A stretch of 64,000 nt of DNA, taken from positions 6,036,027 to 6,100,026 of the forward strand of contig CM119270.1 of the NCBI GenBank assembly GCA_051294375.1. Direction: 5' to 3'. A program made the translations under genes and the position numbers. Each line of letters opens with the position of its first letter. The first letter of the stretch is position 1. Under the pieces are notes generated by a model. It was given only the letters and a program-made list of their open reading frames with translations, was not told the origin of the DNA and searched no databases. Shown piece by piece: positions 7,501-63,469 of this stretch. Source of the DNA: Paraspadella gotoi. Lineage: Eukaryota > Animalia > Chaetognatha.

Positions 7501-10500
7501 AGTGCAAAAATTTATTCTTTAAATTATACATTTAAACATTTGCATTATTTTCGACCCGAGTATTAATTAACTATTATCTGTATGTACCGATTTGCTTGTT
7601 TTCGGACCAGCCTGAGTTACAAGAACAATTCAATGACACTGAAGGCACTTATATCGAACCTGTCGTAATAATCATCTTCATCCCCGAATTGACAGAGTTC
7701 CGCACGAAGCGACTCGAGTTGCGAACGGAAGGTCAAGCGTTCGTGGTAGAGGGTCTCCTTCAGCTGACGAGTCTCAGCCTTTGTCGCCTTATTTCAAATC
7801 AGGTGAAATCAATTTGAAACCATGTTTCTTAAAAATAACCTATCTTCATAAAAACTACTGTCATTGATCGAATCCCTGTAGTAGCATCTATTTCGCTGCT
7901 AAATCGATGTTAAACTAGAGTAAATAATTGTTTACTCACATTCACAACTCGTCAAGTTTTTAGTTTTATACTAGGTATATTTTTAATTATACATGAATAC
8001 TCCTTAAAAGTCTTTACTGGTGTAATCGTTATGCTACTAATGCTTGTAAAACTAAATTTGAAGAAGAACTCACAGAAAAAGTTTGATCGGTTTGGAAAGG
8101 CCCTTTTATGCATTTTTGACTATATTTTGGGATATTGAAGGCTAAACTGGGATAGGTGGGTGGTTATCGTAATATAAACAAATTGCATACATAATCACTT
8201 CCAAATAAATTTTAGTAAAAAAATACTTTTTTGTATGTCGATTTTTTTTTTTGAACGGGTCTTGAATGGAAGAAAATCTTTTGAAAATAGTATGGGAGGG
8301 AGAACTAAATGACGAAAATCTGAGAAGGAATGGAGAGAAGAGGACAAGGAAAAAAAAATTTTAAAAAAAGGATGAGAAAAATCATGGTAAATGGCTAAGA
8401 TAATTCTGGTGGAGCAAAAAATGGATGGCTGATAACCTTCTTTTTTCTCTTCATTATTTCTTAATCACTATTCTCGACTAAACTGAACTCATTAAATAAA
8501 AAACTGATGAATTACTCTTTTTAAAATCTGTAGAATTCTGTATCTTCAATCTTGCCTATATAATTAGCGCGTCTTAAATTGAAGAATTAGTGGCATTAAT
8601 TTTTAAAAGAAAATTTTAAAAGATTTTACTTTTCAAAACCATTTATATTATCAATAATGATTATAATCATCAGAAATTTTTTTCAGTATTTTAAAGTAAA
8701 AAAAAAAAACGGACTTCATCCCGCTTCATTACTCCCCCCCCCTCCTCAACGATCGAGCGATCCTAAGATCCAAAATGGCGGAAAAAGCGTCAAAATTCGA
8801 ATCGCGTATCGTTCAAAGTCGCGTCTTCATTCGTCACCGGTTCCTGTTTCACTTTATACTCGACGGGGTCCGAATCAACATAGTTCTGCTCTATGGTCCC
8901 GTCCGTCTGTCGCCTCCGCCGCCTTCCGGACACCGCGGGATCGAAGTGGGACTCGTCTCCCCACTCGGTCTTCACGGAATCCCCGCCGTCGTTGAAATCC
9001 ATCCGAAGACTTTCACATTTTAATTCGTGACTCAAAAGATGTTTTCTCAGGTGTCGCAAGGAGGTGGCTCTGTACCGACAGAGGTCGCAAGCGAATCTCT
9101 TTCTTTTTCCATTGGCGGATTTGGAGCCGTCCCTTTGTCGCTGGTGAATGATCAAGTGACGATTGAAATTGGACAAGTCCTCGGTCTGATAATCGCAAAC
9201 GCCGCACACGTGTTTTTTGTTGGGGACTAGAAGATGCTTCGGCTTGTGGACTTTCTTGTGTCGATGGAAGTTGGAACCGTCGAACGTTTCGTAGCTGCAC
9301 GAGCTGCAAGAGTATTTTTTCCGACCTACCCTCTCTTCCTTTGGTTGGTGCGTCAACAAGTGTCTCCTAAAATTGGAACAATCCATGGTAACGTATTCGC
9401 ACATTTGACATCCGTAGCCCAATCGAGTCTGGTTGTCCTCTTTCGGTTCGTGTTTCTTTTGATGTTTCTTGAATTCTTTGTATTCGATCGCTTCGAATTC
9501 GCAAACGGTGCATCTATACTTTTCAACCATATAGTCGTCTTCTGGTCGTTGGGAAGTTGAGCACTCTGGTTGGATCGATTCTGGTCCCTGATGAGTCTTT
9601 TTACTTTGACCTTTACCCTTTTTCGCCTCGTGCGTTTTTCTATGTTTTTCGAAATCCCCTTCGTCGATCGTTTCGAAATTGCAATCTTTGCATTCGAATC
9701 TCTTGACGGCGCCTTCTGACATGTGGGAGGCTTTGTGAGTTGCAAAACGTTGGGGGAAAGCTGTTTTGAAGTAACACAAGTCGCAGGAATAAGTGTTTTG
9801 GCTATCGTCAAAGCTCAATGGTTCGTGAGAATTTAAATGTTGTTCCAACGCGTCGAACGTCGTCGCCGTGAAGGGACACACGTCGCAGCGCATTTCGGCT
9901 CCGTATTCTGCGGACCCGAAGATCATGTTGTCAATGTCGAGCGGTTTAACTTTCGCCGGCTCCATCTTTGAGGGGGGGGGGTCCGAAATTCAAAGGAACC
10001 GATTGAAATTTTCACTTGAGAATTCGTGAGGATTTTTCTCTCTCTCACTATTTCAACTTTCGTGACTGGAGAGTTTGAATAATCCTCTTTTCAGTTTCGT
10101 GCTGTAAATACAGCAATTTCTTTCAGCTGTAAAAATCAAACGATAGAATTTCATTAATTTCAGCAGAACAAGATATTTATTTTTTTCATTCAAGAACCAG
10201 TTCTAAAATGAGGCTCAAATCAATAACCATAAATACCGTAAATAAACATTTGGCGATCAATTCGGTGATCCAGTACATGGTAGAAACGAGTTCATAGGAA
10301 ATTTATTGTAGTATCGGTGAGTTTCACATAAAAAATGTAAAAATTAAAGGCTGAGATGCCAAGTGGCCCAGGGCGGATCCTCGCTTGGATTGTTACTTTG
10401 TCTCTGACGACACCACCTCCTCTAGCGTCAGAAAATTAAATTTTGTTTTTCTGTTCTACTATTATTTAATACTAGATTATTACTATTTTTAGAGAATAAA

Positions 10501-25439: not shown

Positions 25440-26584
25440 CAAGTTAAGGGTTCTCACGTTTTCTTCAAAGTTTTTTTCATTGTCAAAGACATTTTTGGAA
25501 TGCTTTCATTTCTTTTGGGAGGATTTTCCATCTCAAAATAAATGTTTATCTCGGCTTTATCTTTTTGTTCATACAGAGCTTACACAAATAGTTTTTAATA
25601 TAATAAAACTCTCTGGCTCGAGTTTTCAAGCGATTAATTTTCCAACATAAACATGTATTTTGAATGTAGTCTTATTATTTGAAATAGGAATACTTTGCCT
25701 ATGTAATTTTTATGGACATGATATAGAACAAACCACTTTCTTCTCATTGAACGAGACCAATCGCCACGAGAAACAAAGAATTAGAGAATTAATGATAATG
25801 AATGAAATAATGAATTAATGATTAATGATATGATATGATATCATATCCTTTGGCTATGACGGAATGAGCCGAGGAGCGGCGAGAGAACAGCAATCCCATT
25901 TCACGAGCTTGTCATTCACGCGCAGCTTTCGTTACTCAATCCGGCATCACAACAAACGCTGACTAATTTCCATTTCCGTTTCACACGGATAAACTTTCCG
26001 ATTTCGATCCATCTAGTCCGTCCGTCCGTCCGGTGTCAGTTCTAAACATTTTTCTCATTTTTATTTTGTTTTTCTTTATAAACTTTTTTTTAATTTCTGT
26101 CTTTCTTTTCCGCCACGAATTTTTGCGGTGAGGAAACCTGAGTTAAAATCGTTAAAAAAAATCAGATGTTGAGTTTGGTTCGTTTGTTTGTTTATTTTTA
26201 TTCTCTTTCTCGCCTTGTTTTTTTTTTCAGATCGTTATTGTCCAAAATTCTAATCATTCATAAATCACTTTTTTTTAACAGATTTATCATTAACTATGTT
26301 AGTGATATTATTTCTTTTTCTTTCCTTCCTTTTTATTTTTTTACTTTCTTTCCTTCCTTCCATCTTTGGTTGAGACTTTATTTTTCTCTCTTTTTTTATT
26401 TTTCCCTTTTTTTTCCCTTTTTTTTCCATTTCTTTTTCTTTCTGTCTTCTTTGCCTATTTTTTTTTCACCTTTGCTGCTTTCCAAGGCGTCCGACGTGTG
26501 GGCCTCCTTGTTCCTGAAGCAATGTTGACATTTCGCTTTGTTGAAGATGTTGGGGACGAATTTGCGGCATTTGGAGGCGGCCAT
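4545..26584 (-). CDS. MPRIP: Myosin phosphatase Rho-interacting protein / protein outspread homolog (MPRIP/TRIOBP family), ~31 coding exons
   Basis: N-terminus [29 protein letters not shown] matches the MPRIP/osp signature. PH1: [48 protein letters not shown]2: [48 protein letters not shown]. Long coiled-coil C-terminus. Approximate exons: 26584-26470, 24603-24439, 23916-23783, 23536-23219, 22782-22494, 22172-21466, 21057-20904, 20422-20091, 19755-19529, 19267-18997, 18529-18244, 17667-17434, 17274-17203, 16947-16804, 16624-16497, 16270-16061, 15816-15530, 15386-14320, 14102-13877, 13630-13474, 13126-12889, 12547-12307, 11870-11635, 7786-7660, 7311-7160, 6943-6831, 6222-6076, 5991-5848, 5779-5643, 5223-5009, 4845-4545. 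Phases are consistent except at one junction (see findings). Confidence 0.88.
5356..5575 (+). repeat. Partial copy of the ~323-bp dispersed/tandem repeat family
   Basis: AATATAAAAATTATCCATTCATTTAATAAATAAGCTATCTTGCCCCTGACTTTGG...CCCAGAGTACCTGGCTTCCCTATCAATGAAGTGG is near-identical to the copies at 35656-35979, 43831 and 54562. Confidence 0.85.
8790..9965 (-). CDS. Intronless C2H2 zinc-finger protein (391 aa, 8 fingers) nested in an MPRIP intron
   Basis: Complete ATG-to-stop ORF with 8 CxxC-x12-HxxxH fingers (CDVCPF..HLNSH through CDLCRY..HLLSH). Starts MEP like the neighbouring ZNF gene. Confidence 0.9.
   Translation of the reverse strand: MEPAKVKPLDIDNMIFGSAEYGAEMRCDVCPFTATTFDALEQHLNSHEPLSFDDSQNTYSCDLCYFKTAFPQRFATHKASHMSEGAVKRFECKDCNFETIDEGDFEKHRKTHEAKKGKGQSKKTHQGPESIQPECSTSQRPEDDYMVEKYRCTVCEFEAIEYKEFKKHQKKHEPKEDNQTRLGYGCQMCEYVTMDCSNFRRHLLTHQPKEERVGRKKYSCSSCSYETFDGSNFHRHKKVHKPKHLLVPNKKHVCGVCDYQTEDLSNFNRHLIIHQRQRDGSKSANGKRKRFACDLCRYRATSLRHLRKHLLSHELKCESLRMDFNDGGDSVKTEWGDESHFDPAVSGRRRRRQTDGTIEQNYVDSDPVEYKVKQEPVTNEDATLNDTRFEF
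11180..11272 (+). repeat. (TTTC)n microsatellite
   Basis: Direct reading of the sequence. Confidence 0.95.
13660..13865 (+). repeat. (GAAT)n microsatellite, intronic
   Basis: Direct reading; it produces the spurious FIHS-repeat ORFs. Confidence 0.9.
18552..18930 (+). repeat. (AG)n microsatellite tracts, intronic; similar tracts at ~24740-24885, 25354-25434, 28070-28305, 29497-29600, 29847-30092, 53983-54095
   Basis: Direct reading; these produce the spurious ERER/SLSL ORFs. Confidence 0.95.
22940..23060 (+). repeat. (GGAAA)n microsatellite
   Basis: Direct reading of the sequence. Confidence 0.95.
23975..24330 (+). repeat. Degenerate (ATCA/ATAA)n low-complexity repeat, intronic
   Basis: Direct reading of the sequence. 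Confidence 0.85.
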
Positions 26585-28067
26585 CTGAAGAGGAGGCGGG
26601 GAAGGGGGGAGGAGGGGGGGGGGGAGAAAAAAAAGGAAAGGGAGAGGAAATAAGAGATTATAGAGTAAGAAATAATAACAGAAATTAGATGATATGAAGG
26701 AAGGAGAAAAGAGAGAATGTAAAGTTAAAGAGAACCAGAACGGTAATTCCAATGTGTTACGCCGCTGTGATTTTATTTTCACTTATGATATGATATGACA
26801 TGACATGACAGGACATGACTAAAAAACTTTTTTTACTCGTGTATTTATAACACTGGATCAAAAGTTCGTCTTTTATTCTTGATTGTTTAGGATTTCTTGA
26901 AGACCGACGGACAGACATACCGAGGGACCGACAGACCGACCGAAAAGTGACTTATAGAGGCGCAACTAAAAAGGGGGAATTAGTAGTAAGAAATGTGAGG
27001 AGAAGAAAATATTAAAAAAGTAAAAGAAAGAAGATGAGAGGAGGAAGGGGAAGTGATATTGAAGGCGGAGATAGAAATAAAAAAAAAATGGGCGGTTGAA
27101 AAAGGATGGAATTCGAAGAATCGTGGTAGAGACGCCTTCTCAGAATTCACGAGGGCGAGAAAACGCAGCGGGGGGCGGGTGGTGGGAGCGATGGGGGGCG
27201 AGAGTGGGCGATTCGGTGAGAGGGGGTAAGATGAGGGAATGGGGGGTTCTTGAGATTTGGGAGGCGGGGAAGCGAAAGCAGTTGATGTGACGCGAATACG
27301 TGAGAAAAGAGACGAAGAGGGATAAGTTAACGCCAAGTCTGCGGTGAACGAGAGGTCAAAATGAGTGGTGAATGCGATTGGTTAACTCGTGGGAGGATGA
27401 CGTTTCACAGAATGATAAATTATTGACGTGAAGAAAAAAATATTGAAACTTGGTGATATCCTTAACATAACCTTTTTTCAATTTTTTTTTATAAAGAAAA
27501 ACATTTTTTAAAAAAAAATTCTTTCATTTTCAAAAGACAAAAAAAGGAGAAATATAAACAAATTTAATTCTTTTTTACTCAATTTATTTTGCCTTATCAT
27601 TATCAATTCTAAGTAAATGGCGAACGGAACTCGATTCGATTCTTAAAAGGTCAAAAAACTTGTTTTGTGTCTCTTTATTTGTTTTTTCTCTCTTTTTTTT
27701 TCAATATTTTCCTTTAATGGAGAATTTTTAATTTCTGTGCCAAAATTATTCGATTCGTCTTTTTTGCTTTAATTTGAATCCTTTCCAATTTTCAATTTTA
27801 GTTTTATTGAGACAAAAAATGAAGAGAAGTATATATTTTTTTTTGTGGAAGAATTGTCGGGTTGAAAGAAAAAGAGACAAAAATTGTCAATGAAAGAAAA
27901 TATATCTGGAGATTCATAAACTCCCGCTAAAAAAAGAAAAACAAAAGGGCCCGTTTGTTCAAGAGAAAGTTTTAAAGTTATTCGAATGGCCCAACTTATA
28001 AATAAAAACAAAAACAAAGTATTAAAAAATAAAAATCGGAATTTGCAAGAGTATGCTTGCTCTCTCT

Positions 28068-33500: not shown

Positions 33501-36500
33501 TTAAGATCGAATGATCGAGATTCGATTTCCACAGACGTCAACAACAGGAAATTCAGCAGTTTCTCGTCCTAACGCAAATACTTTAGGAAATGGGTCTCCA
33601 TTGGCGTGGAATAAGCGACCTTCGCCGCCGCCGCCGCCTGAATTAATGTATTTAAAAAAGTCCGAATTTGTCAACTCTGCGGTCAAATTGGGTTATTAAT
33701 ATATATATGAATAATTAATAGTTTTAATACTAATTTATGCTCGAAGTTAATCGTAAAGAATCACTGCGCGCGAGCAAAGACAGTCACATAAACTGCACAA
33801 GTGCACATTTAACATCTTTAATCATTAATCAATATCATGATAATTTAACCATTCGCTCTTTCACTTTTAGACTTGTAACGAATCCTGACTCCGGCCACGT
33901 CGATTCTTCCGCTTCCCATTGAAGAAGGAAAAATGATCCCGTTCATTGTCGGACCTTGCATCCGCGTCACTTTTTGCCGCGAGACGAAATTCCACTTCCT
34001 CAGCTTCAGAAGAGACTTAAAGTGGGTGCCCACTTTGTCGGCAACGATTATGCCGAAGCTCGGATCAGTTCTGAGGTTTTGATTGATTCGAAGCCACATG
34101 GATACCTACGATCAATGTTTTGTGATGTATGAATGTATTAAATTATATAATATAATAATATAAAATATAAAATAATATATAATAATAATAATAATAATAA
34201 TATATAATATAAAATCCACTTCATTGATAGGGAAGCCAGGTACTCTGGGAGTGAATAAACGAGACTGTGAGAGGTCTTGATTGAAAGCTTGCAGGGACCT
34301 GCTATGTCATTATCTTGTAAGAGTGATGGAGGCCTTAAACCACCAAAGCCTGTCCAAAGTCAGGGCAAGATAGCTTATTTATTAAATGAATGGATAATTT
34401 TTATATTGGTTGTATGGTGGAATAAAACCCACCAACCGTTCATCAGCGGCCATTGGTGCCGGAGGCAAGTCATTCGCCTCCCAACCCAAAGGTCCGGGGT
34501 TCTAGCCCGGTGGTCGTCTGGCAGTTTAGAGGGACGGGGCGCTTAACCCGCCTGTAACATGATGTTACAGCCTGATCCGAAGCTCAGGGACTGCTTATAT
34601 TGAAGGTTCTATCACTAACTCATAACAATAATTACTGTCTCTTCATTGGTGAGCCGACTTCCGAACACAACAGCAACAACAACAATTTCAGGCGACATGC
34701 CTCAACCTGGCGATGCACTTTCCGCCCACAACACATCAGGCGACATGCCTCAACTTGGTGATGCACTTTCCACCAACAACAATTCACTGAAGAGACGCAA
34801 CAGACATCTTCCTACGGGAGGGGGATGTATGGTGGAATAAAACCCACCAACCGTTCATCAGCGGCCATTGGTGCCGGAGGCAAGTCATTCGCCTCCCAAC
34901 CCAAAGGTCCGGGGTTCTAGCCCGGTGGTCGTCTGGCAGTTTAGAGGGACGGGGCGCTTAACCCGCCTGTAACATGATGTTACAGCCTGATCCGAAGCTC
35001 AGGGACTGCTTATATTGAACGGTTCTATCACTAACTCATAACAATAATTACTGTCTCTTCAGTTGTACCAATTTCATAAAATTCAGCTCCTTGTATTTTG
35101 ATGCTAGTGCGGAGTACAATAAGTATTCCCCGATCTAATACTTAAGGGAGTGGTCTTTTCATACAATTGAAACATTCTTTGAAATATTTTCCACTTCATT
35201 GATAGGGAAGCCAGGTACTCTGGAGTGAATAAACGAGACTGTGAGAGAGTCTTGATTGAAACGCTGCAGGGACCTGCTATGTCATTATCTTGTAAGAGTG
35301 ATGGAGGCCTTAAACCACCAAAGCCTGTCCAAAGTCAGGGGCAAGATAGCTATTTATTAAATGAATGGATAATTTTTTATATTGGTTGTACCAATTTCAT
35401 AATATAAAATTATCCATTCATTCAATGAATAAGTATCTTGCCCCTTGACTTTGTACAAGCTATGACAATTAAGGCCCTGATCCCTTTAACTAGATAATAA
35501 CATAGCAGGACCCTGCAAGATTTCAATCAAGACCTCACACAATCTCGCGATTTATAACTCCTATAGCACCGAGCTTCCCTATAAAATATATTTGACGCCG
35601 ACTCTATACTATCTTTATGAAAAGTCACCAACCGGCCTATTTATCTAAGTTCTTCATGAAATTGGTACAACCAATATAAAAATTATCCCTTCATTTAATA
35701 AATAAGCTATCTTGCCCCTGATTTTGGACAGGCTTGGTGTTTAAGGCCTTCATCACTCTTACAAGATAATGATATAGCAGGGCTCCTGCAAGCTTTCAAT
35801 CAAGACTCTCTCAGTCTCTTATATTCACTCCCAGAGTACCTGGCTTCCCTATCAATGAAGTGGTATAATGTTTCAAAGAATGTTTCAATTGAAAAGACCA
35901 CTTCCTTAAGTATTAGAACGGAGAGTACGATACTGTACTCCGCCCAGCAACAACATACGTATACAAGCAGCTGAATTTTATGAAATTGGTACAACCAATA
36001 TAAAAATTATCCAGACAGACTTTGGTGGTTTAAGGCCTCCATCACTCTTACAAGATAATGACATAGCAGGTCCCTGCAAGCTTTCAATCAAGATTCTCTC
36101 ACAGTCTCTTTTATTCACTCCCAACTAATGTCTTTGCCATACAAAGTCTAGCTTACTTGAACAGTCGAGTTGGCCGGAAATTCCATTTTCCTCATCAACT
36201 TGTTATGGCTGCCATTACATTTTGATCGGGATTCCCATGTGAAATACATTTCTTCATTTGAAGGATTTTTTTGTTCTGTACATGTCAAATTAAAATCATT
36301 GATAATACATAAAATGTAATGTTTAATTCTCTAAAACAAAGAAAGAATAAAAAAATAAATAATAAATTCTTTGTATACATGTATATAACATACTATTGTG
36401 GCGGTATACTCACACCGCCTCACGTCCACCATCGTTCAGCCAAATCCATTGGCTCAGAGGGGGAACACACCATCCCAGGCGTAGTGTTCCATCCACGGTC

Positions 36501-39618: not shown

Positions 39619-41795
39619 TAGAGAGAAAAAGATTGTTCTTTTTTTAGGAAGAAACCAGACCGAGGTCAAATTTAATATTTGCATATTTAATTAATTTATA
39701 AATAGTTATCACAACTCAAATAATTATTATTTATAAAAAGTTAAAAATGATTAAATATATACACTAAAAATATTTATAAATTTAATAATAGTACAAATTA
39801 TCAGATAACAAAAAAAGTAATGTTTAATTTGACTATATCTCTCTTATCAACTCCTATTTTAGATATAATTTGCCAATAGTGGGCCAACCGGTCCAAAGTT
39901 GCTAATAATAATAAACAAAAATTTTTTTTTTTTATAATGTGATGCATGCAATTATATTATTCGGCGAAAGTGGTGCATTTATAATAGGTCACATTAGCTG
40001 ATTTATATGTGATAATGCATATCATTATGAGTTATTCTTCATTTTTTTTAAAAAATAATAATAAGAGAGAGAGAAGAGAGAGAGAGAGAGAGAAAGAAAA
40101 ACCGAATTTCTTTCCAATTATATCTCAGATATAAATTTGGGATTTTGTATTGAAAAAAAAAGCGCGGAATAAATGGCGATAATAAAAGTTTTGAGAAGGA
40201 AAAAAATAATCAGAATTTTTCAAAAAACGAACGATCGTACAGAGTGAGAGAGACAGAAAGACAGAAAGAGAGAGAAAGAGAGGCAGAAGAGAAAAAGAGA
40301 GACAGAAAGAAAGAGAAAGCTGGAAGCCAGCTGAACAGTCACTGCAGAACCTGAACTCGTTTTTTAAGGGTTCAGAAAAAGCAGCAACTGACAAATATAG
40401 GAAAGAAAATCTATATATAATTTAAAGAAATAAAAGAAAGGCAAAAATATGTTACAATTGTTTACAATTGGAAAAATTTTCCAATTTTTTTCCAATCGCA
40501 GCTTGTAAAAGTATTAAATTATATTTGTATTAAAATTAAGATATAGCTTCTCATTAAAAAAATCCTTGAGTTCCATTCTTATTAAAAATTTAAAACAAAT
40601 TTTTTGAATTTCATCTTCAATATTATATAACTGCAATATGTAAATTAGATTAAAGCATTTCTATATACTAATTTGGATATTATAAGGAGTACTTTAATTT
40701 CATTTGCATATTGCAGTAAATCATAATGAAGTGGAAATTCAAACAAAAAATACTTAAATCCAAATGTAATATGAAAATATCACAGCTATTTCAAGATGAA
40801 AAGCCATATCTAAATTTTTAACTTACTATGATCGCACACTTTTGTAAAACTTTTCATAATTATAATAATTTTTTATTTTAAAAAAAAACGGTAAGTCACA
40901 GCCAAACCTATAAAAGCGTAGTAGTTTTTATATATGAAAACAGCGTGACGGACGACGCGACGACGACACGACGACGACGACTACGTCACAAAGAAGCAAC
41001 CCTAAAACATTATAGAGCCTGACCCGGCTTCGCCGGTCAAGGCTCGATAAAAATCAAAATTATTTCACTGAACCAGCTTTCGTTAGACTCTACGGACTCT
41101 TCCCGCTCATCTCGTTCGATGTATGTGATAGACAGACTGTGAACCTGCCAACTAGCCCGTACCTTCTTACCCGTTTTTTTCGTGGCCATAAACGTTGTCG
41201 CATTAGCCCTAAAGTAAGCCGATTTCGGTTTGTGGCCTTTAAAATCTTTATCATCCGCTACATTTTTAAAGATGTGGCAAGTCGCACTTGCGTTCATTTC
41301 TTCCTACATTAAAAAAAACGGGTTCTTTGACTTTTTTCATTTTAATTTTTCATTTTTCATTATATCACGTACTCAGGATTTGACCCACAGTCGCAAACCG
41401 AACATCCATCCTCACTCACCTCTAAATAAAATCCTAGGACGTCGGTTTTTTTAAGAAAAATGACTGCGCACTCGATTTTAGAATTAACTTCAAAAGCTTT
41501 TGTTTTATAGTTTGATATTAAATCCAAACGTAAAAACTGACCTGGAGATAAAGTGAAGGAATTTGTAATTGATCTGTCGTAGCCTCGTAATAATATAATT
41601 TTGGTTTGGTAAATATACACTGAACTGAAATCAAATTGTAGATCCCTAATTCAAATTTGACTATCCATTGATGTTTCACCTCTCACCTTTATCCGGGTAA
41701 TTTTGTCCAAACCCCACACTCAGGCAATGAAAGTAAACCCAATGCAACGCAAGAAAAAATGTTAAACGAGATGTAGATGCCACCGACGGAATCAT
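33501..41795 (-). CDS. Secreted protein, tandem family paralog A (signal peptide, degenerate PAN/Apple-like module, two galactose-binding/CBM-like beta-sandwich repeats)
   Basis: Exons ~41795-41687 (MIPSVASTSRLTFFLALHWVYFHCLSVGFG), ~41541-41420 (SKIECAVIFLKKTDVLGFYLE), ~41304-41171, ~38080-37873 (HWRR..IGW..VALSALIKFWDECP), 37658-37579 (DSCVSNQWI), ~37045-36949, ~36828-36720, ~36276-36157, ~34104-33850 (VSMWLRIN..GRIDVAGV), ~33637-33501 (FPVVDVCGNRISIIRS*). Exon-by-exon similarity to paralogs B-D. Confidence 0.75.
34413..35061 (+). mobile_element. Complete TRIM (non-autonomous LTR retrotransposon) with tRNA-derived sequence in both LTRs; Helenus/TRIMp3-like
   Basis: LTR1 34413-34645 and LTR2 34828-35061 (TATGG...CTTCA) appear to differ by only a 1-nt indel. 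PBS-like TGGTGAGCCGAC at 34647; PPT GGGAGGGGGA at 34816-34825; 4-bp TSD GTTG (34409-34412 / 35062-35065). It is inserted in a copy of the 323-bp repeat whose empty site is seen elsewhere in the window. Confidence 0.9.
34446..34518 (+). pseudogene. tRNA-like (possibly Gly-CCC-derived) Pol III cassette inside LTR1; equivalent copy at ~34861-34933
   Basis: 7-bp acceptor stem GCGGCCA/TGGTCGT, A-box-like TGGTGCCGGAGG, anticodon-loop-like CTCCCAA with a broken stem, and T-arm CCGGG-GTTCTAG-CCCGG containing a B-box-like motif. Confidence 0.7.
37098..37484. mobile_element. hAT-type MITE
   Basis: TIRs CAGGGGCGGC...GCCGCCCCTG, 8-bp flanks TCGCTGAG / TAGCTGAG (7/8 match), GC-rich subterminal regions. 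Confidence 0.75.
40480..40870. mobile_element. Degraded fold-back/MITE-like inverted repeat
   Basis: Imperfect arms around ~40675, e.g. ACTGCAATATG / CATATTGCAGT and GAATTTCA / TGGAAATTC. Confidence 0.45.
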
Positions 41796-41965
41796 TTTTG
41801 TTTCTCTCAGTTGCGTCAATTTTCGGTGTCTAAAAAATGGTTGGAGGAAAATAAGGAGAACTGAAAGGGCGACGATAGATTAAAGAGTAAGGCGTAGTGA
41901 AAGTTGCAGATCAAAATTCGAATAGTTGTTCATAAACAGTCTTCTGCTAAAGATTTTCGCATACG

Positions 41966-42340
41966 CCCATACTTATACATAGTACCTACCATAGAAAATG
42001 TCAAAATTTTAAAATAGTTTTTTTTTTAGTTTTGAAAGCAGATTCGATTTCCTCATAAATAGTTGTTAAAAGAAAATATAAGTCTTAATCAAAAATTCTT
42101 TCATTGAGTTAGCTAAAAATTAAAAAAAACTATATTTTTTATACTAAAACTCAATTATAGGTTAACTATAATAGTTTTTAGGGTTTTGACCTACTTAATG
42201 AAATAATCTTCTAAAAGGAGTTATAATTTCCTTTTATCAACTTTTCGTGAGGAATTCGAATCTCCTTTCATAAATAATAAAAAAAAAACATTTTAAAATT
42301 TTTACATTTTCTATGGTGAGTAATATGTATAATTATGGGC
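41966..42340. mobile_element. AT-rich MITE with long imperfect TIRs
   Basis: GCCCATACTTATACATAGTACCTACCATAGAAAATGT pairs with ACATTTTCTATGGTGAGTAATATGTATAATTATGGGC; the arms extend inward. Confidence 0.7.
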
Positions 42341-43830
42341 TAATGCAAAAATTAAAAAAAAATAAAAATTTCATTTAAAAATACTTACAGGTACAAGCCT
42401 GTTCATGATCAAATATTCGAATTTTGATTCTACTTGATTTTAATATTTTTGCTACGCTTTATTAAAGAGTTACCTATAATAACAATCTGGTTATTCCGGT
42501 AATGCAAGTTCAAATGATGGGCATCATAATCATTCACCTTATTGACTAAAAAAACCTTTAAACGCTTAAACACTATGTGGAGCGAGAATTCGCTAACCTT
42601 CCATCCAACGACTGCCGTAATAGGATCAGGTGTCACCTATGCTGTTGGTTGCTACGCAAACTACGAAAAATATCGGGACTATCTCTCAACTTTTTAGGAA
42701 AGCACGTTTTGTTACCGTTTTCTATCGATTTTTTGTTGCGGATATAAAAAGGTTTAGAATTCAGACCTCAAAGTGTACTCATACTTATTTAAACATTTTC
42801 TGATGTAAATAAAAATTCTACAGTATATCGGTTTTCTGATAGTTTATATTCTGTAATAAATAACATGCCCATGAATACAAAATTACTATTTAGAAAAAAG
42901 CGTCAACTAAGTTTTTTTTTTTTTTAATGAAACCTATTTTAAAATGGTTAAAATCCTAACTAGATTTACTACGGGATTAATAATTAAAATGATAACTAAT
43001 AAACATAATTTATGACGTTGATATGGTATTGATTTGACGACCAATATTTTTTTTTTGGGGGGGGGGCATTTCTAAAACCAATTCTTATCCTTAACAAGCT
43101 TTTTTGTCCATCCTATTTCGTTTCAATAAAAGCCAAAGTTTTTGATTTTGAGGACATTTTTGAATTCAGTTTTTCGCTCTCCAAAAGCGGCGTGAAGAGC
43201 GAAAAATTGGCATAAAACTTATATACTAAATTTAAATTTTACTAAAATGATACTTAAATTACACTCAAAATACACTCAAATTACATTCAAAATATAAAGG
43301 TGCCCCTATGGAGTATTTTTTATAAGATTCTACTTGGTGGTCTTAACCGAAATAATGTGAAAAGATCATACATAACCTTTGTCCCCCCCAAAAAATTACC
43401 CATTCAACCTCTTTCTGTTCACCCTTCTAGATATTATGATGTTCTCATTAATGATTTCCTTACAGGAATGATGTTTGATATCTATTTAGAAAACTATGGC
43501 AGAAAGTAATATAACCTTGTATAGAAGCTCCCCATATTTCCAGAATATAACATTGACAAAATGACAACCCTCTCCTCCTCCGTTCAGATGTAGATTATCA
43601 AAAATAAAAATTAATAAAAACTAATAATAACACAATTTTCAGGCTATACATGCAAAAATAAAAACTTTTTCAATCCAAAAATTAAATTTATTTTTGATTC
43701 CAAACAACAACGAAATGAAAGGAACACTGCAAGTTTAAAAATCAAACGGAAATTAATATTCATGTTTCATATTTCATTAGTATATTAATTTCAAGACTCT
43801 TACTAATTTGCTTTAATTACCATTGTTTTT

Positions 43831-43990
43831 ATGAAATTGGTACAACCAATATAAAAATTATCCATTCATTTAATAAATAAGCTATCTTGTCCCTGACTTT
43901 GGACAGGCTTTGGTGGTTTAAGGCCTCCATCACTCTTACAAGATAATGACATAGCAGGTCCCTGCAAGGTTTCAATCAAGACTCTCTCAC
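43831..43990 (+). repeat. Partial copy of the ~323-bp repeat
   Basis: Starts at the ATGAAATTGGTACAACCAAT anchor after a T-run; truncated at the other end. Confidence 0.9.
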
Positions 43991-44342
43991 ATATATTAGA
44001 CAATTTAAAAATCTAAAGAAACTCATCGGTTGAGTAAAGCTATATTAATATGAATTAAATGTTTTCTAAAACTTTTAATTTCGTTTTAAAGGAAAAAAAT
44101 AAGAAAAAATAAAAAATAATTTCGAACTTAGAAAGAATATTCAGTAAAGCATACAAATGCGTTTTACTTATAAAAATGATCTCGAGATTTATAAATACTT
44201 TAGTAGTACGTATAGGTAAGATAATATTAGTATCCTTTAATGTATTCGTCAATGATCGTCAATGATCGTCAATGATCGCCAAGAATCAGTTGTCTTCCGA
44301 AAAGAAACCAGAAAGAAAATTCGATTGATTTCACAGATCAAC

Positions 44343-47300
44343 TCAATCACATTCGTCCTGAGCATCATTTGTGAGAGAGATTCTATTTCCGCAGTCGTCG
44401 ACAACTGGAAAATTGTTCGTTTGATTTCCGAATACAAATAATTGTGCGTGGGGTTGTCCATCGGATTTTATGAAGCGAGCCTTCTTATTATGACCATCTG
44501 AACAAACGGAAAGAATAACGAATTGGTTATAAATTGATGTTCGAAATTTTAGTTATTTTCCGATGAGTAGAGTGAGAATGGTGTGAAGAATCCAAAGAAA
44601 TCATCATCATCATCATCATCATCTAATCGCTTTTAGAGTCAAAAAGATTACCAAGTTGATTGCATTCGACTTTGATGCCAGCCAGGTCAATCCTTCCATC
44701 TCGCCCCCAGGAAGGAAAACTAAACCCAATCTCAATTTCATTCTTCGTCGTCTTCATCTCGACAGAGACGAGGTACCACGTCCCCTGTTTCATAAAGCCC
44801 TTAAAGTGGGTCACCAATGAGTCGGAGAAAACGATGCCAAAGTCCTTTTTGAAATTTCGGTTGCATCGGATCCACATGGACACCTGCGATCGAAATTTAA
44901 GCATCTTTATCAACGTTATGACTATTTTTCTTTTGAGTCTTTAAGTCAAGGACACAGTCACACGCTTTGCCAACGCAGCGGGAAGTCGTGCAATCTCCCG
45001 CTGAACCATTGGGATTGGCTGTATGAAATCGGTGAGGCGGTGAGGTTATACCGCCACAAAATACAATGGTTGCTTACCTGTACGTCAGAATTCTGCTCTA
45101 CTTCGAATTTTCGAATCAACGTTTTATTTCCCCCAATTGCATCATCACATTTGCGTCCAAATTCGAATGTGAAATATTTATCGTCATCCGAGGGATTTTC
45201 TTGGTCTGTTAAGTGTGTGTATACTAGCTTTCTGGCCCCGCAGAAAAAAAAACAAACTATGCGAACATTTAAGTTTACTTTAATACTTGAATTATTTATC
45301 GACTAAACCTGAAGTAGCCCAAACCTCTTCCCCGTTTTCAGAGATTGGAATAATCAATTTGTTCAAAATCCGAAAATAATTGTTTCGATTTCCCTTGGCG
45401 AAGGCGACCTGAGTCTCTGAAATAGCAAAATTATGAGATTGAATTCTAAGAACAGTGTACATTGAACATTTCGACATTTGAAATATTTAGCAGGTGTTTA
45501 CTTTCCCGCGTGTAAAGGGTGAGCTGGGATATGCTGATTTGGAAAGGGTGTGAGTCAAAGAAAAAGACCGCTTTGTTGTCGGTGATCTGTTGGCACAATA
45601 TAATAATATACAATATAATAAAGACAAAACATTTTTTGACTACTGATTTTTTCGAAGCGAGGCGAGAAGAAATTGAACTGGAAATTAACTAAAAGCAAGA
45701 GCGACCTAAATCTGCCTCACTCTCACTATTATTTCCTAACTTGCAATTCAATCCATTACGACTGCCAAGTAACTATTGCCAAGTAACTATTCAGTCATCA
45801 ACGACAGAATCGACGACGTGACGTCGTCTGTAAATATGATGAGACCCTGGGCCAGTTGGTTGGACGCCGCGCGCCCCGCACCCCGGGCATCACAGGTAAT
45901 CCTAACGTAGTATTTACAAAGGAAAACCATTTTAACATACTGCTCGGTACTGATCTGTACTGTGAATAACCGCTAAAGCGTAGTAAAAATTCTAAATTTA
46001 ACTTTAATTAAAATTCTAAAAGTGAGGAACGAACAACATTATACTAATTAACATTTATGTATTTAAAAATATTTATAATAAATTTTACAATTTACGTAGT
46101 AGGTCATATTTATACGAGTACTAATTCAATAAATGTTAAAATTTTAAAATAGTTTTTTGTAAGATTTTTTTTTGTAGATTCGGATTCGTCATGAAAAGTT
46201 GATATAAAGAAATATAACTCTTTTTTTAAAAATTCTTTCATTAAGTTGATCAAATATAAAAAAACCCTATATTTTAAGCAGAATATAAATATGCGAAAAT
46301 TGAAGAACATAAAATTAATTATTTTTACAAATTAATGTTCACTGATGGTATGTTATCTATAATTGATATTTAGAATTTTCGTACGTAACTTTCACTCCGC
46401 TCTATCAACCACGTGACCCAGGATCTCCATCCATAACTTCGCGAAGCCTCACCTCAGTACGATTTCCTCTCGAAACTTGTGAGACGCGAATCCACTGATC
46501 GCCGACGCAAGAATCCGTTTCAATTCTAGATGTCAAAAATAATGAATGAATCTGCGATAAATTATCGTTTTGCTTCTTGTCAATGTCAAGTGGCTTGCTT
46601 TATTTTTATTTTTCATGCGTGTCGTTAACGTTTCACTCTCCCGCCTGACGTAGGCCGAAGATCAATCCTTCTCATTCTCCCCTAGTGACGAGTGACTATC
46701 AAGTCAAGTGACCTTGGGTTAGCGTCTCATTGCGATAGTTCAGAAGTAGCGGCTGGGGGACATCGAACCCGCTTGTCGAGGCGGATTACTGTCTTATCCG
46801 AATTTCGAATAACGGGCGGTAATTTGTCCTCCCTAACTTTCACTAAAATATTGTTGTTGTTTTTGTCGTAGATGATATATATCTATATATGAAATACTAA
46901 TATATTAATATTACAGAAAAAAAGCATAAAATAAAAGGTTTTCCTGTTGAAAATGCCGAAAATCCCGAAGCCGACTTTCAGGTTGGGCTTTGGACATCCG
47001 TCCCAAAATTTGACCCAAGCGGAAAGGGCGACCCTTGTGTTGAACAGGGAATTGGGAATGCGCCAACCAATCCAAGACGATCCTGCCACGTCTCTTCTCT
47101 TCTCGGTTCTGCGCCAGTGGATCACGGTCCCTCGTGAAGGATCTTGAACTAAAACTAAAATTTGACGGAGTGGAATGAGAAAAACAATGAAGATGACATT
47201 GACTGGTTCGAAACATAATTTGAATATATTTTATGAATAAAAAATGAATACAGAGAACAAGGAAGAGTAAACTAATAACATAACTATACCATTCCAACGG

Positions 47301-49087: not shown

Positions 49088-49293
49088 AAACAAACTCCCA
49101 TGAGACGAAACGAATGGGTTCGTGGTTGATTTCGTTTCATTGTTGGGCCTTTTTTTTCCAGAACGGCCCATTTTTCTGAAATTCGTAATTAAAGATTAGG
49201 TTAGAGTTTAAGGATTAGGTTTATAATGAAGGTTAGGGTTTTGGTTTGTGATTATGGTTAGGGATTAGTATTTAGGGTTAAAAAGAAAGGATA

Positions 49294-49517
49294 TGAAGAG
49301 ACAGTAATTGTTGTTATGTGCGCAGTCCCTGAGGTTAGGATTAAGCTGTAAGTTTCACCGTAGTAACACCGTAGTACAAACGGGTTCAGCGCCCCGTCCC
49401 TCTTAACTGCTAAGCGACGACCGGGCTAGAACCCCGAACTTTGGGTTGGGAAGCGAACGACTTGTCTCCGTCATCAAAGGCCGCTGATGATCGGTTGGTG
49501 GATTTTAGTCCACCATA
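49294..49517 (-). mobile_element. Solo LTR of the tRNA-containing TRIM (diverged)
   Basis: Reverse complement of TATGG...CTTCA with 4-bp TSD GATA/GATA; inserted in a TTAGGG-like tract. Confidence 0.85.
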
Positions 49518-50587
49518 GATAAAAGTTTAGGGTTAGGGTTCAGGATTAGGTGAGGGTTAAAGCTTAGGGTGAGGGAATAGGGTTAGGGAAAAAACGAACA
49601 GAAAAGGGGGAAGACTTTCGGAAAAGTGATGAAACAAAAAATGGGTCGACTGACGAAGCTCTTGCGCATGGAAGAAAAACACGCTCCGCCACTACTTATA
49701 CACGTCTAGTTTACAATCACAATTTGTATTGTTTAACTTACTTTGATTGCTTTGTAGTTTTAATTGAAGTACCAACGAGTACATACAATCAGTCCGAACA
49801 GGCTAAATAGCGTGGGGAATGAAACATCAATTCGTGTACTCAACGACATAACATCAGTCTGGGACGCCACGCAAGGTCGTCGGCATAATGTTTTTGTTTG
49901 GAACCTACGGCTCACATTATATACAATTTCATTCATTCTCTTTTTGGGAGGAGCACGTTTCGTTACGGTTTTATCGATTTTTGCGAGAGATGATCGGTTC
50001 AGAATTCAGACTGCAACATAAGACCTGTAAACACTTTTAGTAATTTGAGTTGCATGTAAAGTGTATTCATTTTAGTTCATTTTTGCGATGTTTTTACTCA
50101 CTTTATTGAGATAGAAATCAAATTAGTTACGGATTTTGTTTCGTGGTCTTATTATTGATTCCGAAGAATTCTTCGTTCAGAAAAATTAATTTTTGTTTTT
50201 GGTATTACTCTCTTTCTCTCTCTCTCTCTCATTCTTGAGAAGAAACGGTAAAGATCGATCGGTAATTTGGTCTGGTGAAAGATAAATATAAAATCTATAT
50301 GAAATCTATATAAAATATGAAAACACTATTTTTGGGTAATAAATGTGAGAAAGATATTTTAATTTCGCAAATGAGCAATTAGCTCATGAAGAAGTAAATC
50401 CTTTTTCGCTTACTCCAACTTTGCCCATTTGTCATCATCAACGTTAAACCATAAATTTCAAGCTTCTTTTATTTTGACTGAATTAATGAGAAACACGGAA
50501 TCAACTGGTACAATTTAAATAGAAAAAAAACTTTTTTTATCTCTATTTTCCCATAGTAGGGAGATCACGTGACGTCCAAAACCCAGA

Positions 50588-56167
<5,580 letters not shown>

Positions 56168-57453
56168 ATTTGTTATCCTTGGGGTTTTGTATTGTCCTGT
56201 ATTAATTTCAAAACATTTTCGCTGAAAATGGACTAAAATAAATAAGGCTAAATAGATAAAAACAAACAAAATGGAAATTAAATTATTTGTAGAATAAAAA
56301 AGTTTTCCTCAGAATTCAAAAAAATATATTTTCAACAAAGTAATTATTTTTTTCTTCTATTGTTTCAACGGTTGACTGAAAATACGATCCCCTTGCAATT
56401 TCACCGGAAAAATGTTTTCATCAGATCGATTTAATACTTTATAATATGACATAGTTTTTGTTTGATATAGTTTTCACCGGCCGATAAAGCAGCTTTTTGT
56501 TCCCACAGGTAAAACCACAACTGTTCAGTCAATTTCTTCCCAACTATTGAAGGCGAAAATTTTATAAGTCGCAAAGACGCCAATATTGATGTCGATGGAT
56601 TTCATCTTGTTTACTTTTTAGATGAGATTTTTCATTTTCCATTCCTTATTCAAACATAAGGTCCGATGAACTTCATACACCAGAATAGAAGTAGTTAGTA
56701 ATCATTAACTAATAGCTATATAAATGTTTGTAATGTAATACTGTCAAAACGAAAAAAGGAAATCAAAATCCGATATCTCATTAACGATACGGTTCTCAAA
56801 TTCCCCAAAAAAACGACCATATTTAGTTGTAGCAAACCAAAAAATTAAATTGCATATAAGTTTAGATCTACTAGTTTAAGCGATAGGAAGTTAACTTCGT
56901 ATTATAGACTAATTGAATATGAAACTGGAACGCTGTTTGTTCTCTTGTTTATTTTCCGTAGCGTTTCATAAGAGGCCGCCGCTTTTCGGCCACACCAATC
57001 TATTACTCCTTTTTTCAGTTCAGAAACTCAGCCAGTTGTCGGTAATATACTATTCTTTTAAGTTCTTTATGTAACTTGCCAAGACTGATTATTATTCAAA
57101 GAATCAATACTGAATGTGAATCACTTCGATAAAAGTGGGGATGTCACGAGGCAGTTGGGAAAAATCTCTATTTAAAACGGATGAATTTATATTAGATAGT
57201 GCTCAAACAATTTTCAATACTAATAAAAATGCTATTAAAACGTCCGCAATTTAATTCCAAAAGCTCAGGTGGATCCCAGTTTTCCTCGCCCCCCCAGTCC
57301 GCTGGCATCAAAGACGTTGGTATATAAAATTTAATTTGTTAACACAAACGAAGTACTAAAAACATGCCTAAATTCGAATAAAATCCAATGAAAACACCAC
57401 ATCTTTCTCAAACGTAAAACCTCTCATACATGAAACGAATTATAAGCAGATGT

Positions 57454-60400
57454 TCACTCAATGTTGGCCATGATTTCGATCAGCTTCTCGAAAATATCGA
57501 TGCCTTCGAGGAAGACATCTTCATGGAGGCACTCGTCGAAGGCGTGCTGGCGATCCGGCGTGTTTCGAAGCGGGGAAAATCCCACTGCTTGAACCCCGAC
57601 CGCCCTGCAAATTGACAATCACATATTTAAATTTACTTAGCCATTGAATTTTGTCAAAATATTAAATAAAAGCTTGAAGAGACAGTAATTATTGTTATGT
57701 GTTAGTGAGAGAACCGTTCAATATAAGCAGTCCCTGAGCTTCGAATCAGACTGTAACACCATGTTACAGGCGGGTTAAGCGCCCCTTCCTTCTTAAATTC
57801 TAGGCGACCACCGGGCGAGAACTCCGGACCTTTGGGTTGGGAGGCAATTGACTTGCCTCCGGCACCAATGGCCGCTGATGAACGGTTGGTGGATTTTAGT
57901 CCACCATAAGCTAATAAAAATCTTGAGACCTGAGATATTTGCTGTCGGTTCCACCGCCGCAAATGACGGGTCTGTATCTGACCCCGAGCTTCTTCAAAGC
58001 TCCGTCAAACGCCATCCAATATTTGGAGTCAGAATTAGTTTTAGTCGCAACCTGGTGAGGATGAAGAGAAATAATACGAAACAGATTCGAACAAAAGGGA
58101 AACAAAAATGTTATTTGATGAAAAAAAAAAGACTTTGGACAAAAATCCTAATTGTTTGATGATTGCCTTAAATAGACTTTTGACCAAAGGCGCACGTTTT
58201 AATTTATTTGCTAAACTCACGGTATTTCCGGAACGTTGAATTGATTTCACTCGTACTCCTATGAGAGAGAGAAGAATACGACAATCTTTCACTAGTGAAA
58301 AATCGTATTTCATCATGACAACCACGCTCATATCACATTCACCCAGACCATACTTACCTTCTCCTGCATCGGCGACCCACTCGTGGATCCGCTGTTCCAT
58401 TTCTATGACGCTGTGATTCGGAGAAACGCGACAGTCAAACGTGGCCGTGATGTCCGTAGGTATCACGTTTGACTGGATGCCACCTGGCGGGGTGAGTGAA
58501 GTAAGTAACAGCGTCGCATTATCGTATCGCTTACCGATTAGCGCGCACCTGCAAAAAGCTTACATGCCAGGACTATAATGCATCAAAACCGTCAATATCG
58601 AAATACGATACGAATTATTTAGAATGACGCTTTCCCCGACATCAATTTTTTTTTCTTTTATAGCTAATTTATTAGTTCTGAAGCCTCCGGAATGAAAACT
58701 AAATCGGGCGGCCTTAGTATTTTAAATACATTCAAATACTTTAATTCGAACTTTACCTAAATAACAAAAACACATTTTTCAATATTTCAGAGCTTATTCG
58801 AGATGCTCTCGTTAAGGTCCGATCAGTATTTTAACTTTTATTAGAAATGTTTCGAGGTGCTCTCGTTAAGGTTCGATCGTTTTTTGCCTCTGTAGAATTT
58901 TGTATTTTTCACTCTCTCTCGCTTTCTTGTTTATTTGCTGACGCGAAATAAATTCTTTAAAAGAAGATTCCTGCTTTTCGATGTTAGTATAGCTCAGGAA
59001 AAGGGAGCTCTTCAGTTCTACGACTCACCGTTAACCATCGTGAGGTTCACGGTCGTGACTTCACCGAGAGTGAGATGGGGATTTGACGACAACAAAGCTT
59101 CTTGTTCTCGTCGGAAAATTGAAACCGAGTTTAAAAAGCGTCGAAATTTTTCTAAGGAAAAAAAAAAGAATAGCACGATTCAAAATTTTTGACAAAACGT
59201 TTAGTATGAATCACTGTGATAGTAGGTTTTAAAAAAGTTAAAAAAGCTTTACTATATAACATGCTACTTTGTTTCGGTTTTAGAACCGACACAAACCACA
59301 CACCAGCGGCGGCGTTTTGCACGAAGCGTGAGCCGTGGCCAGGGTTGCCCGTGAAAACGATCGTAAATTTGTGCCCAATACGCTCGGCATAGTAAACGCT
59401 ACAAACCGAGTTGCCTTCGCCTGTAAATAGAGAATGGAAGAGTTTTTTTAATTCCAAGATTAGAGAAGCTAATATTCAAAATAAGCCAAATCATATAACC
59501 TGCAGCGACGGACTCGTCAAAAGAAAAGCCAATGTTCAAACTCTGTATAAATTTTGATTCCACCAAAGCTTTCATGCCTGATTGGAATATAAATAAAGTA
59601 ATTTTTATTCCTATAAATGCAGTCGAAAATAAAACAATTTGAACAATGAACGTAAGCTTAGATTATTTGAACCTATTATGGTGGACTAAAATCCACCAAC
59701 CGTTCATCAGCGGTCATTGGTGCCGGAGGCAAGTCATTCGCAAGTCATTCGCAAGTCATTCGCCAAAGGTCCGGGGTTCTAGCCTGGTGGCCGCCTTGCA
59801 GTTAAGAGGGACGGGGCGCTTAACCCGCCTGTAACATGGTGTTACAGCCTGATCCGAAGCTCAGGGACTGCTTATATTGAACGGTTCTATCACTAACTCA
59901 TAACAATAATTACTGTCTCTTCACTATCAAGTTGTCGAAAACATAAAAATGCTATTACGATATATATACCCTCACGTCATAATAAAAAGGCACTGTGGTT
60001 TATTTCTCATGTTTACCTTTATGTCCCCCAACCTCCTCGTCGGGAACAAAAGTAAGCACGATGGTTCTCAAGAGATACTTGCCCGCCTCCTTGAGCCGAC
60101 GCACTGCTTCGAGATGCTGCATTCCAATGCCCTTCATATCCTACGCAGTATAAAATGTTTTAATGAACCATTACTGAGATATGCGTTATCCTTTTTTTGA
60201 ATAACTATGTTTGCCAGTTTGGGGCACTATTGTAAAGACTCGGTGCACTTCAAAAAAAAAAAAAAATAACGGGCTAACTTGTAAATTAACACAATTAACA
60301 CTATCCTGCTATCGTGATCCAGGAGAGTCGACACCTCAAGCACCAACGAGCATCAACGAGCTTTCATCAAGCAACGAGCATCACCGAATTCTCCCCCCCC

Positions 60401-61145
60401 CGATTACCTGAATTCCCCGACCGTATATCATTCCGTCCTCGGTCTTCGCTGCCTCGAAGGGAGGATAAGTCCATTTCTCGGCGTAAACTGGCTTAAGATT
60501 TAAAAATCGTCTGCTTTTAAAAAAAATTCAAATACCGAACGCTATTTATTCTTTGGGTTGGTTTTTTGCTCTTATAGTTGATACCGGCTACGACGTCCAT
60601 GTGCGAATTGAGCAGAATCGCCTCTTGCGACGGGTCCATTCCTCTCAATGTCATAACCACGATCGGGTCCCCGCCTAAATTCAAATAAACGGTTAATGAA
60701 GGACAATGAAAACATACGATTGGAGGACAGGAAATTTAAAATCTACTTCGTTTCAATTTTTATTTGAATACATGAGCCATGATTATTAGTTGAGATTGTA
60801 ACGGTAATTTCATTTAGATATTTATCCACATTATTATTTCTTTTGACTTACCCGGGTTAACTCTCTGACAATCGAGGCCAATATCCGTGGCCTGTTGCAT
60901 CAGAAAGTCGACAGCCTTCTCGTACTTTGGATTTGGGTGAGAAGTGTCGATGCGGAGGTAATGTCGCAGTCTAGTCACCGACGCATCTTCGCCATCCTGA
61001 GTGATATTATGAGATGGAAAATGTTTGAATATTTGAAAAAAGATCTTTTTAGCTTATGAAGGTACATAGAAGAATAGGAAAGAAAAGTATTTTAATCATA
61101 TCATTTTAAATGGAACTGTCGTTTACTCACTATTGCCATCGCCAT
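57454..61145 (-). CDS. ACY1: Aminoacylase-1 (M20A N-acyl-L-amino-acid amidohydrolase), 12 exons
   Basis: Motifs [129 protein letters not shown]; Zn ligands and the catalytic Glu are present. Approximate exons: 61145-61131, 60996-60852, 60675-60585, 60487-60408, 60140-60017, 59577-59500, 59421-59304, 59151-59029, 58483-58358, 58258-58221, 58051-57930, 57604-57454. Confidence 0.93.
57675..57908 (-). mobile_element. Solo LTR of the tRNA-containing TRIM, in the last ACY1 intron
   Basis: 234-bp reverse complement of the LTR with 4-bp TSD AGCT/AGCT. Confidence 0.9.
59677..59923 (+). mobile_element. Solo LTR of the tRNA-containing TRIM, in an ACY1 intron
   Basis: TATGG...CTTCA with 4-bp TSD CTAT/CTAT; internal triplication of GCAAGTCATTC. 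Confidence 0.9.
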
Positions 61146-63048: not shown

Positions 63049-63469
63049 TAGATCAACGAGAAAATAATTGGTAAAGTTTGAAAAAAATTGAAAAAATAAA
63101 CTAAAAAGAATTCTAATAATTGTTTGTACAAGGACAAGTAAAAAAAAGATTTTTCCTTTTTTAATTTATCTGAATTTAAAAAAAAAAACTGGCTTGTCAT
63201 AAGAATGTGTTTATTTAAGTTTTATATGAAATTGGTACAACCAAAATAAAAATTATCCTAAGTTGTAGTTCATTCAAATAGCGATGTCGCCGGCGATTCA
63301 CGCACGAGTTGCAGGTGTGGTTCTAGTTGGTTGGCGACTTCGCCATGGCGATATCGCCAGGGCTTTGGCGATTTCGCCAGTCCCCCCACTGGCGACCTCG
63401 CCAGTGATAAAAGTAGCGAATATAATGAAAAGCGCAGCTAACACGGGATGAGCATCACCTACAGGCTCC

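Follow-up and report, generated by a model that had tools for sequence, protein, structure and literature searches.

Organization of the locus

The window analysed here, by which we mean the whole 64-kb stretch of Paraspadella gotoi DNA, carries on its forward strand a 649-bp element that is almost certainly a miniature LTR retrotransposon (TRIM), inserted in a tandemly repeated host sequence. The element consists of the following parts:

34409..34412 (+), left target-site duplication (TSD) GTTG, 4 bp
34413..34645 (+), 5' LTR, 233 bp, TA...CA
34415..34434 (+), 5' hairpin, predicted part of U3, with a 6-bp stem in the 5' LTR and a 7-bp stem in the solo LTRs
34446..34518 (+), degenerate tRNA-like unit with a Gly(CCC)-like loop, a worn box A at about 34454-34465 and a box B at about 34498-34508
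34552..34570 (+), inverted repeat, perfect in the full element and with an 8-bp stem and 3-nt centre in solo LTRs A and B
34646..34827 (+), non-coding core of 182 bp, including a (CAA)n patch and, at 34688-34783, two tandem units of 48 bp
34647..34658 (+), primer-binding site (PBS), likely of tRNA-Trp type; other copies have one extra C after 34653
34816..34827 (+), PPT (34816-34825) followed by a 2-nt spacer, TG
34828..35061 (+), 3' LTR, 234 bp, TA...CA, with a second tRNA-like unit at 34861-34933
35062..35065 (+), right TSD GTTG, 4 bp

A BLAST comparison of the LTR with the window returned three further copies, all of them solo LTRs:

57675..57908 (-), solo LTR A, 92% identical to the 3' LTR, TSD AGCT
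59677..59923 (+), solo LTR B, 94% identical to the 3' LTR, TSD CTAT
49294..49517 (-), solo LTR C, 86% identical to the 3' LTR, TSD TATC, older and with indels

The remainder of the window contains a few features that can be named:

57400-61050 (-), aminoacylase-1-like gene of several exons (Pfam M20_dimer; PDB 1q7l)
1854-3548 and 8790-9989 (-), C2H2 zinc-finger reading frames
41953-42461, 45974-46275 and 40600-40746, possibly MITE-like elements in the form of long inverted repeats, with a further copy close by

Solo LTRs A and B apparently lie in introns of the aminoacylase-1-like gene, an exon of which gave 43 matches that are at most 60% identical; the protein-atlas clusters it matched comprise bacterial M20 proteins only. 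The exons of this gene, split by introns, and the arrays of C2H2 zinc fingers indicate a eukaryotic and probably animal host. A search with one of the C2H2 frames yielded no homologue at E ≤ 0.001, and none was found with a short exon at 26468-26590 (-), the start of which we take to recall the N terminus of MPRIP/outspread. Solo C is surrounded by degenerate CCCTAA (telomere-like) repeats (49250-49560), and a satellite of about 140 bp containing CCCTAA repeats occupies 63452-64000 and reaches the end of the window.

Structure, termini and target site of the element

The original prediction described two direct repeats of about 234 bp differing by one indel, and the LTRs agree with this description: at 233 and 234 bp they show no substitutions and a single 1-bp indel after 34604, where a base is missing from the left copy. 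Since solos A and B have the form of the right LTR, this deletion is either private to the left copy or an assembly slip. The predicted 182-bp core, opening on a TGG PBS-like motif and closing on a PPT with a 2-nt spacer, was likewise recovered at 34646-34827. It begins with T-TGG, ends with a 10-nt purine tract followed by TG, and holds only short open stretches in six-frame translation, as expected of a TRIM, which lacks gag and pol. With its PBS adjoining the 5' LTR, its PPT adjoining the 3' LTR and a total length well within the limit of about 1 kb for TRIMs with two direct terminal repeats, the element conforms to the TRIM architecture throughout.

Taken by itself, the full element can be read with a duplication of 2, 4 or 6 bp, because its flank repeats the first letters of the LTR. 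The three solo LTRs settle the matter in favor of TA...CA ends and 4 bp, so that TG...CA ends with a 2-bp duplication and the 6-bp reading, which fails in all three solos, can both be rejected. TA...CA termini and an exact 4-bp duplication, for which the chance is about 0.005 per site, are found in each of the four copies in the window. The ends had been called unusual; they are real, but a TA start is already known from published Helenus families. The duplication had also been said to be confirmed by empty sites in sister copies of the host repeat, and GTTG is indeed single in six of the seven stretches usable for this comparison (from a total of eight), the remaining one being diverged. Contigs assembled from public sequencing runs join 34408 directly to 35062, skipping the element (six contigs in run X1 and one in run X5).

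Six substitutions (34422, 34428, 34517, 34520, 34527 and 34562) occur in both LTRs and in none of the three solos, a pattern to be expected from reverse transcription of one RNA and not from two separate insertions. The hallmarks of SINE2 elements (TSDs of variable length, a simple-repeat or A tail, and 5' truncation) are replaced here by fixed ends and a 4-bp TSD in all four copies.

Within the LTR, the 5' hairpin anticipated by the original prediction does fold (z -2.4) and is kept in five out of five LTR copies, and some 130 bp with three hairpins extend downstream of the tRNA-like unit. The palindrome described as perfect is so in the full element, yet it constitutes a minority variant that hinges on A34562: this position is G in the three solos and in more than 97% of contig depth in all three public runs that cover it. 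The arms of this inverted repeat (34553-34569) resemble the TGTAAC...GTTACA ends of many published animal Helenus LTRs, and one may speculate that they are a relic pair of LTR ends. A 12-nt word at 34544-34555 and 34959-34970 can also be seen by eye in both published Ajax LTRs, probably by chance. No T4 run occurs anywhere in the element, the first one downstream being at 35096; on its own this absence is not significant, having roughly one chance in four (an estimate from a T fraction of 0.23).

The primer-binding site

The PBS, previously described as similar but not identical to a Trp-type PBS, lacks one base relative to the Trp-type PBS given in Fig. S2 of PMC10886601 (cited here and below from the parts available to us) for Gypsy-32_NVi, a wasp Gypsy, and for Helenus-2_SyJa. 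The missing base is supplied by the extra C after 34653, which accounts for 26% of depth in X1, 40% in X5, 43% in X9 and 29% in X2, and with it 12 of 13 positions match. Judging from this resemblance, the primer is likely to be tRNA-Trp, with an Arg-type primer as the alternative. Self-priming by the tRNA-like unit was discarded, as the best duplex leaves the TGG of the PBS unpaired with a 3' CCA.

tRNA-likeness of the LTR segment

The 72-nt tRNA-like fold originally proposed for each LTR stands as a tRNA-like segment, but not as a complete fold. The segment spans 73 nt (34446-34518), and only its acceptor and T stems pair, whereas the D and anticodon arms do not; an intact acceptor stem, the T stem and a CT-NNN-A loop all lie at the expected places. 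The presence of just two paired arms suits a decayed promoter and not a working tRNA. In solo B, moreover, the anticodon loop has been replaced by a short internal duplication (net +13 bp).

Dedicated tRNA finders give a mixed picture. With default settings ARAGORN found no tRNA; with relaxed settings it reported a Gly(CCC) pseudogene at 34446-34518 with a score of 86.8, which is reached by 7 of 1000 shuffles of the LTR and 1 of 1000 shuffles of the segment, and is exceeded by two unrelated sites in the window (87.9 and 87.5). Rfam returned no tRNA at E ≤ 10 on either 901 or 95 bases, so the covariance-model similarity to tRNA on which the original prediction had staked its reading of 34446-34518 did not materialize; an Rfam match to the snoRNA sR38, which at 14.6 bits stays below the cut-off of 50, is attributable to chance. 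A covariance model of our own, built on 13 phage T5 tRNAs (18 aligned, five of which were dropped as poorly aligned), assigned the segment 5.2 bits (E 0.16), as the best match inside the LTR, full length and in register, whereas two genuine tRNA-Gly genes scored 41.7 and 22.3 bits. The same model gave nothing at 34446-34518 when the whole window was searched and no full-length match in solo C; it is not ideal, because it derives from phage and expects a CCA end.

Evidence for tRNA ancestry comes from 20 textbook invariant and semi-invariant tRNA positions (with pairing ignored). Without any gap, the segment agrees with 17 of them, a value attained by 1 of 3000 shuffles, which is the top score over both strands of the window and is found in the two LTRs only; real T5 tRNAs score 15-20 by this measure. 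If flexible spacing is allowed, 17 is reached by 5 of 300 shuffles and at four other positions in the window. The segment has lost A14, R24 and R57. In the box A region it retains T8, R9, G10, Y11, R15, G18 and G19, while the motifs TRGCY and YGG, typical of most Helenus families and not required, are both absent. Box B reads GGTTC at 34498-34502, as it does in solos B and C, and is changed in solo A; a loosened pattern combining boxes A and B is present in the LTR and solo B and absent from solos A and C. No covariation is seen among the five LTR copies, which are too few and too close to tell, and one of the covariation alignments, with helix 4 off register by one and two helix 5 pairs on gaps, has meaningless rows. 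From these features of its sequence, we regard a tRNA origin of the segment as quite probable.

Distribution of the family

Contigs were examined from four public runs of one organism (X1, X5, X9 and X2, of which X9 is only guessed to be RNA). Contigs with unrelated flanks depart from the LTR directly behind the terminal CA (108 in X1, 69 in X5, 36 in X9 and 7 in X2) and directly ahead of the first TA (10 in X9 and 14 in X2), and the core is covered along its full length, with recurring variants in tens of contigs. Although contig depth does not amount to copy number, both the LTR family and the core are clearly multi-copy. Together with the 4-bp duplications of all four copies in the window, these contigs lend support to the original view of a young TRIM that generates 4-bp duplications and solo LTRs.

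The run of a second organism yielded a 151-nt contig (depth 5.4) spanning the LTR end, PBS and core with 7 differences and one gap, and another contig that stops at the CA; these may come from a close relative or from contamination. A stretch of the core had no cover in runs X11 and X14, which does not prove absence there. Elsewhere, the LTR start had no match in viral contigs or in prokaryote genomes, and a plasmid search for the family gave none. Eight metagenome loci matching the 20-nt LTR end do so over 20-23 nt only, as expected by chance, and 17 matching phage records are all short chance matches, none of them on a tRNA. A two-motif pattern taken from the tRNA-like unit hit 120 viral loci, including only two tRNA genes, both of them Gly-CCC as the pattern forces, and is uninformative.

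Relation to known TRIM families

The closest published counterpart of the element is Helenus (TRIMp3), the TRIMs with tRNA-derived sequence in their LTRs described by Kojima (2024, Biology 13:119, PMC10886601), for which the parts available to us give a size range of 311-1263 bp and, in animal families, a 4-bp TSD. The element shares with them the non-coding LTR-PBS-core-PPT-LTR arrangement, a length within the published range, a tRNA-like piece in each LTR with GGTTC as box B, the 4-bp TSD and the formation of solo LTRs. Its Trp-type PBS recalls that of Helenus-2_SyJa and Helenus-2_SyUm, and its TA start that of five wasp families (1_MeDo, 3_MeDo, 3_TheEle, 2_EuAn and 4_MusRap). It departs from them in a box A more worn than in most of the published families seen, and in the placement of its tRNA-like unit, which lies close to the beginning of the LTR, is followed by about 130 bp and has no T-run behind it, whereas many of the published LTRs in those parts show by eye a T-rich patch just behind the unit. 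Four motifs specific to the family had no match in the whole supplement of PMC10886601, where line breaks may hide a motif, and no resemblance to published animal Helenus consensus sequences was apparent by eye in the parts of the supplement at hand.

According to the same source, Cassandra and Ajax also bear internal promoters derived from small RNAs in TRIM LTRs; the present element differs from them in having no 5S match (Rfam, E ≤ 10) and in its TSD, that of Ajax being 5 bp. PbTRIM of Pogonomyrmex barbatus is, on the available parts of PMC3532108, another animal TRIM (480-781 bp) with a 4-bp TSD, many solos and AT-rich targets, but its PBS is of Leu type and a tRNA-like LTR piece is not mentioned in those parts. 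As far as the available text of PMC10886601 goes, Helenus is known from computation only, and Pol III transcription has been demonstrated for Cassandra alone. In the literature accessible to us, only passing citations of Helenus or unrelated papers were found beyond PMC10886601, and the available parts of PMC12859917 and PMC13570524 contain no added experimental test of Helenus.

In the LTRs of Helenus-2_SyJa and Helenus-2_SyUm, the two families with a Trp-type PBS, an apparent hammerhead ribozyme core can be discerned behind the tRNA-like part (by eye and unscored), a feature that is not mentioned in the portions of PMC10886601 available.

Alternative explanations

The original prediction itself named two adjacent SINEs as an alternative, alongside which a local tandem duplication or an assembly artefact may be considered. 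The window does contain three single-repeat copies for one with two repeats, and a tRNA-like head is present in each. The constant 4-bp duplications, the lack of tails and 5' truncation, the PBS and PPT adjoining the repeats, the six private changes common to both repeats, and a core that likewise occurs in many copies and is connected to LTR ends across independent runs refute the adjacent-SINE reading, and leave this group of explanations hardly any credence. A different question is whether the LTR of a TRIM took up a complete SINE or a small-RNA head made of two parts, in which case the later hairpins would be a SINE body or a decayed small-RNA piece. This refines the best explanation instead of opposing it, and agrees with the 130 bp and three hairpins that follow the tRNA-like unit, with a second weak ARAGORN fold at 34509-34596 (82.1), and with SINE insertion as the origin of Helenus proposed by Kojima in the parts of PMC10886601 seen. 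Yet the score of 82.1 lies inside the window background, the 3' part of solo B matches nothing in Rfam at E ≤ 10, and the window holds no free SINE form with a tail, all of which make such a capture quite improbable.

The alternative that must be taken most seriously is a conventional TRIM transcribed by Pol II and derived by deletion from a Gypsy-type element, in which a GC-rich LTR segment is tRNA-like by chance or through long-dead ancestry. The failure of covariance models, the worn box A and an ARAGORN background that attains an equal score all speak in its favor, and TRIMs that make 4-bp duplications and leave solo LTRs are known from animals, PbTRIM being an example (PMC3532108, in the parts available). 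Set against this are the 17 invariant positions in exact register, matched by 1 of 3000 shuffles, and the correct placement of an intact acceptor stem, the T stem and the CT-NNN-A loop; on this evidence we deem the Pol II reading unlikely but not negligible.

We therefore return to the reading of the locus as a young, multi-copy, non-coding TRIM whose LTRs contain a likely tRNA-derived promoter, which is likely to be copied by Pol III with a Gypsy-type helper, and which probably represents a new Helenus-type family. The assignment to Helenus is itself a probable one, while the chances that Pol III drives the element appear evenly balanced.

Proposed mechanism and implications

According to the mechanism that we envisage, TFIIIC would bind boxes A and B, the tRNA-like piece acting as a promoter and not as a tRNA, and RNA synthesis would start near 34446, leaving a U3 of 33 nt. 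Since the element has no T4, transcription would continue through the core and the 3' LTR and terminate in flanking DNA. Synthesis of DNA would then be primed at the PBS by a host tRNA, likely Trp, and carried out by borrowed enzymes, reverse transcriptase and RNase H, which would restore a pair of identical LTRs from the PPT. Integrases trim two bases adjoining the PPT, and the TG spacer would correspond to these two bases, with insertion following on a 4-bp stagger; recombination between LTRs would ultimately leave the solo copies. The helper is presumed to be a Gypsy because, in the available parts of PMC10886601, animal Helenus families have PBSs that resemble only those of Gypsy elements, and make 4-bp TSDs. 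A bolder version of this scheme, which we put forward tentatively and consider somewhat doubtful, is that of an independently born and still active TRIMp3 family in an animal lineage without listed members. Its layout would be one so far undescribed for Helenus, with Pol III initiating 33 nt inside the LTR at a tRNA promoter that has all but eroded, no internal terminator and an end in the flank, so that almost the whole LTR would serve as R.

The TRIMp3 design with tRNA-derived LTRs was already published in 2024; the element is likely to be one more Helenus family and not a new kind, and it leaves the understanding of retrotransposons unchanged. A young and abundant family does nonetheless offer a convenient test case for Helenus and would extend its host range. 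Should the doubtful active-family version be true, the element would make it possible, for the first time, to test directly in an animal whether Pol III can drive LTR retrotransposition. From the standpoint of annotation, finders that require TG...CA ends would miss the element, and its solo LTRs would be taken for SINEs or tRNA pseudogenes.

The host repeat

The repeat in which the TRIM is inserted (34216-36123) has a tandem unit of 322 bp and recurs at 5352-5576, 43827-43991, 54558-54712 and 63222-63258. Its copies also occur inverted and dispersed; their starts vary, and most of them end at one A-rich point. The match of this repeat to the Rfam family Twister-P5 scores 25.8 bits, short of the cut-off of 37.6, with E 0.0046 in a search of 901 bases, and the twister-like stretches are located as follows:

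34322-34364 (+), twister-like stretch
35297-35339 (+), twister-like stretch
43892-43934 (-), twister-like stretch
54623-54665 (-), twister-like stretch

When the repeat is compared by eye with the Rfam consensus, pairing is preserved in both pseudoknots despite altered letters. Stem P1 is a loopless 6-nt palindrome, and a ribozyme of this form might therefore be active only in dimeric form. The public runs contain the repeat family in abundance. Possibly a twister-bearing repeat, either retrozyme-like or associated with Penelope elements, it may be more surprising than the TRIM itself.
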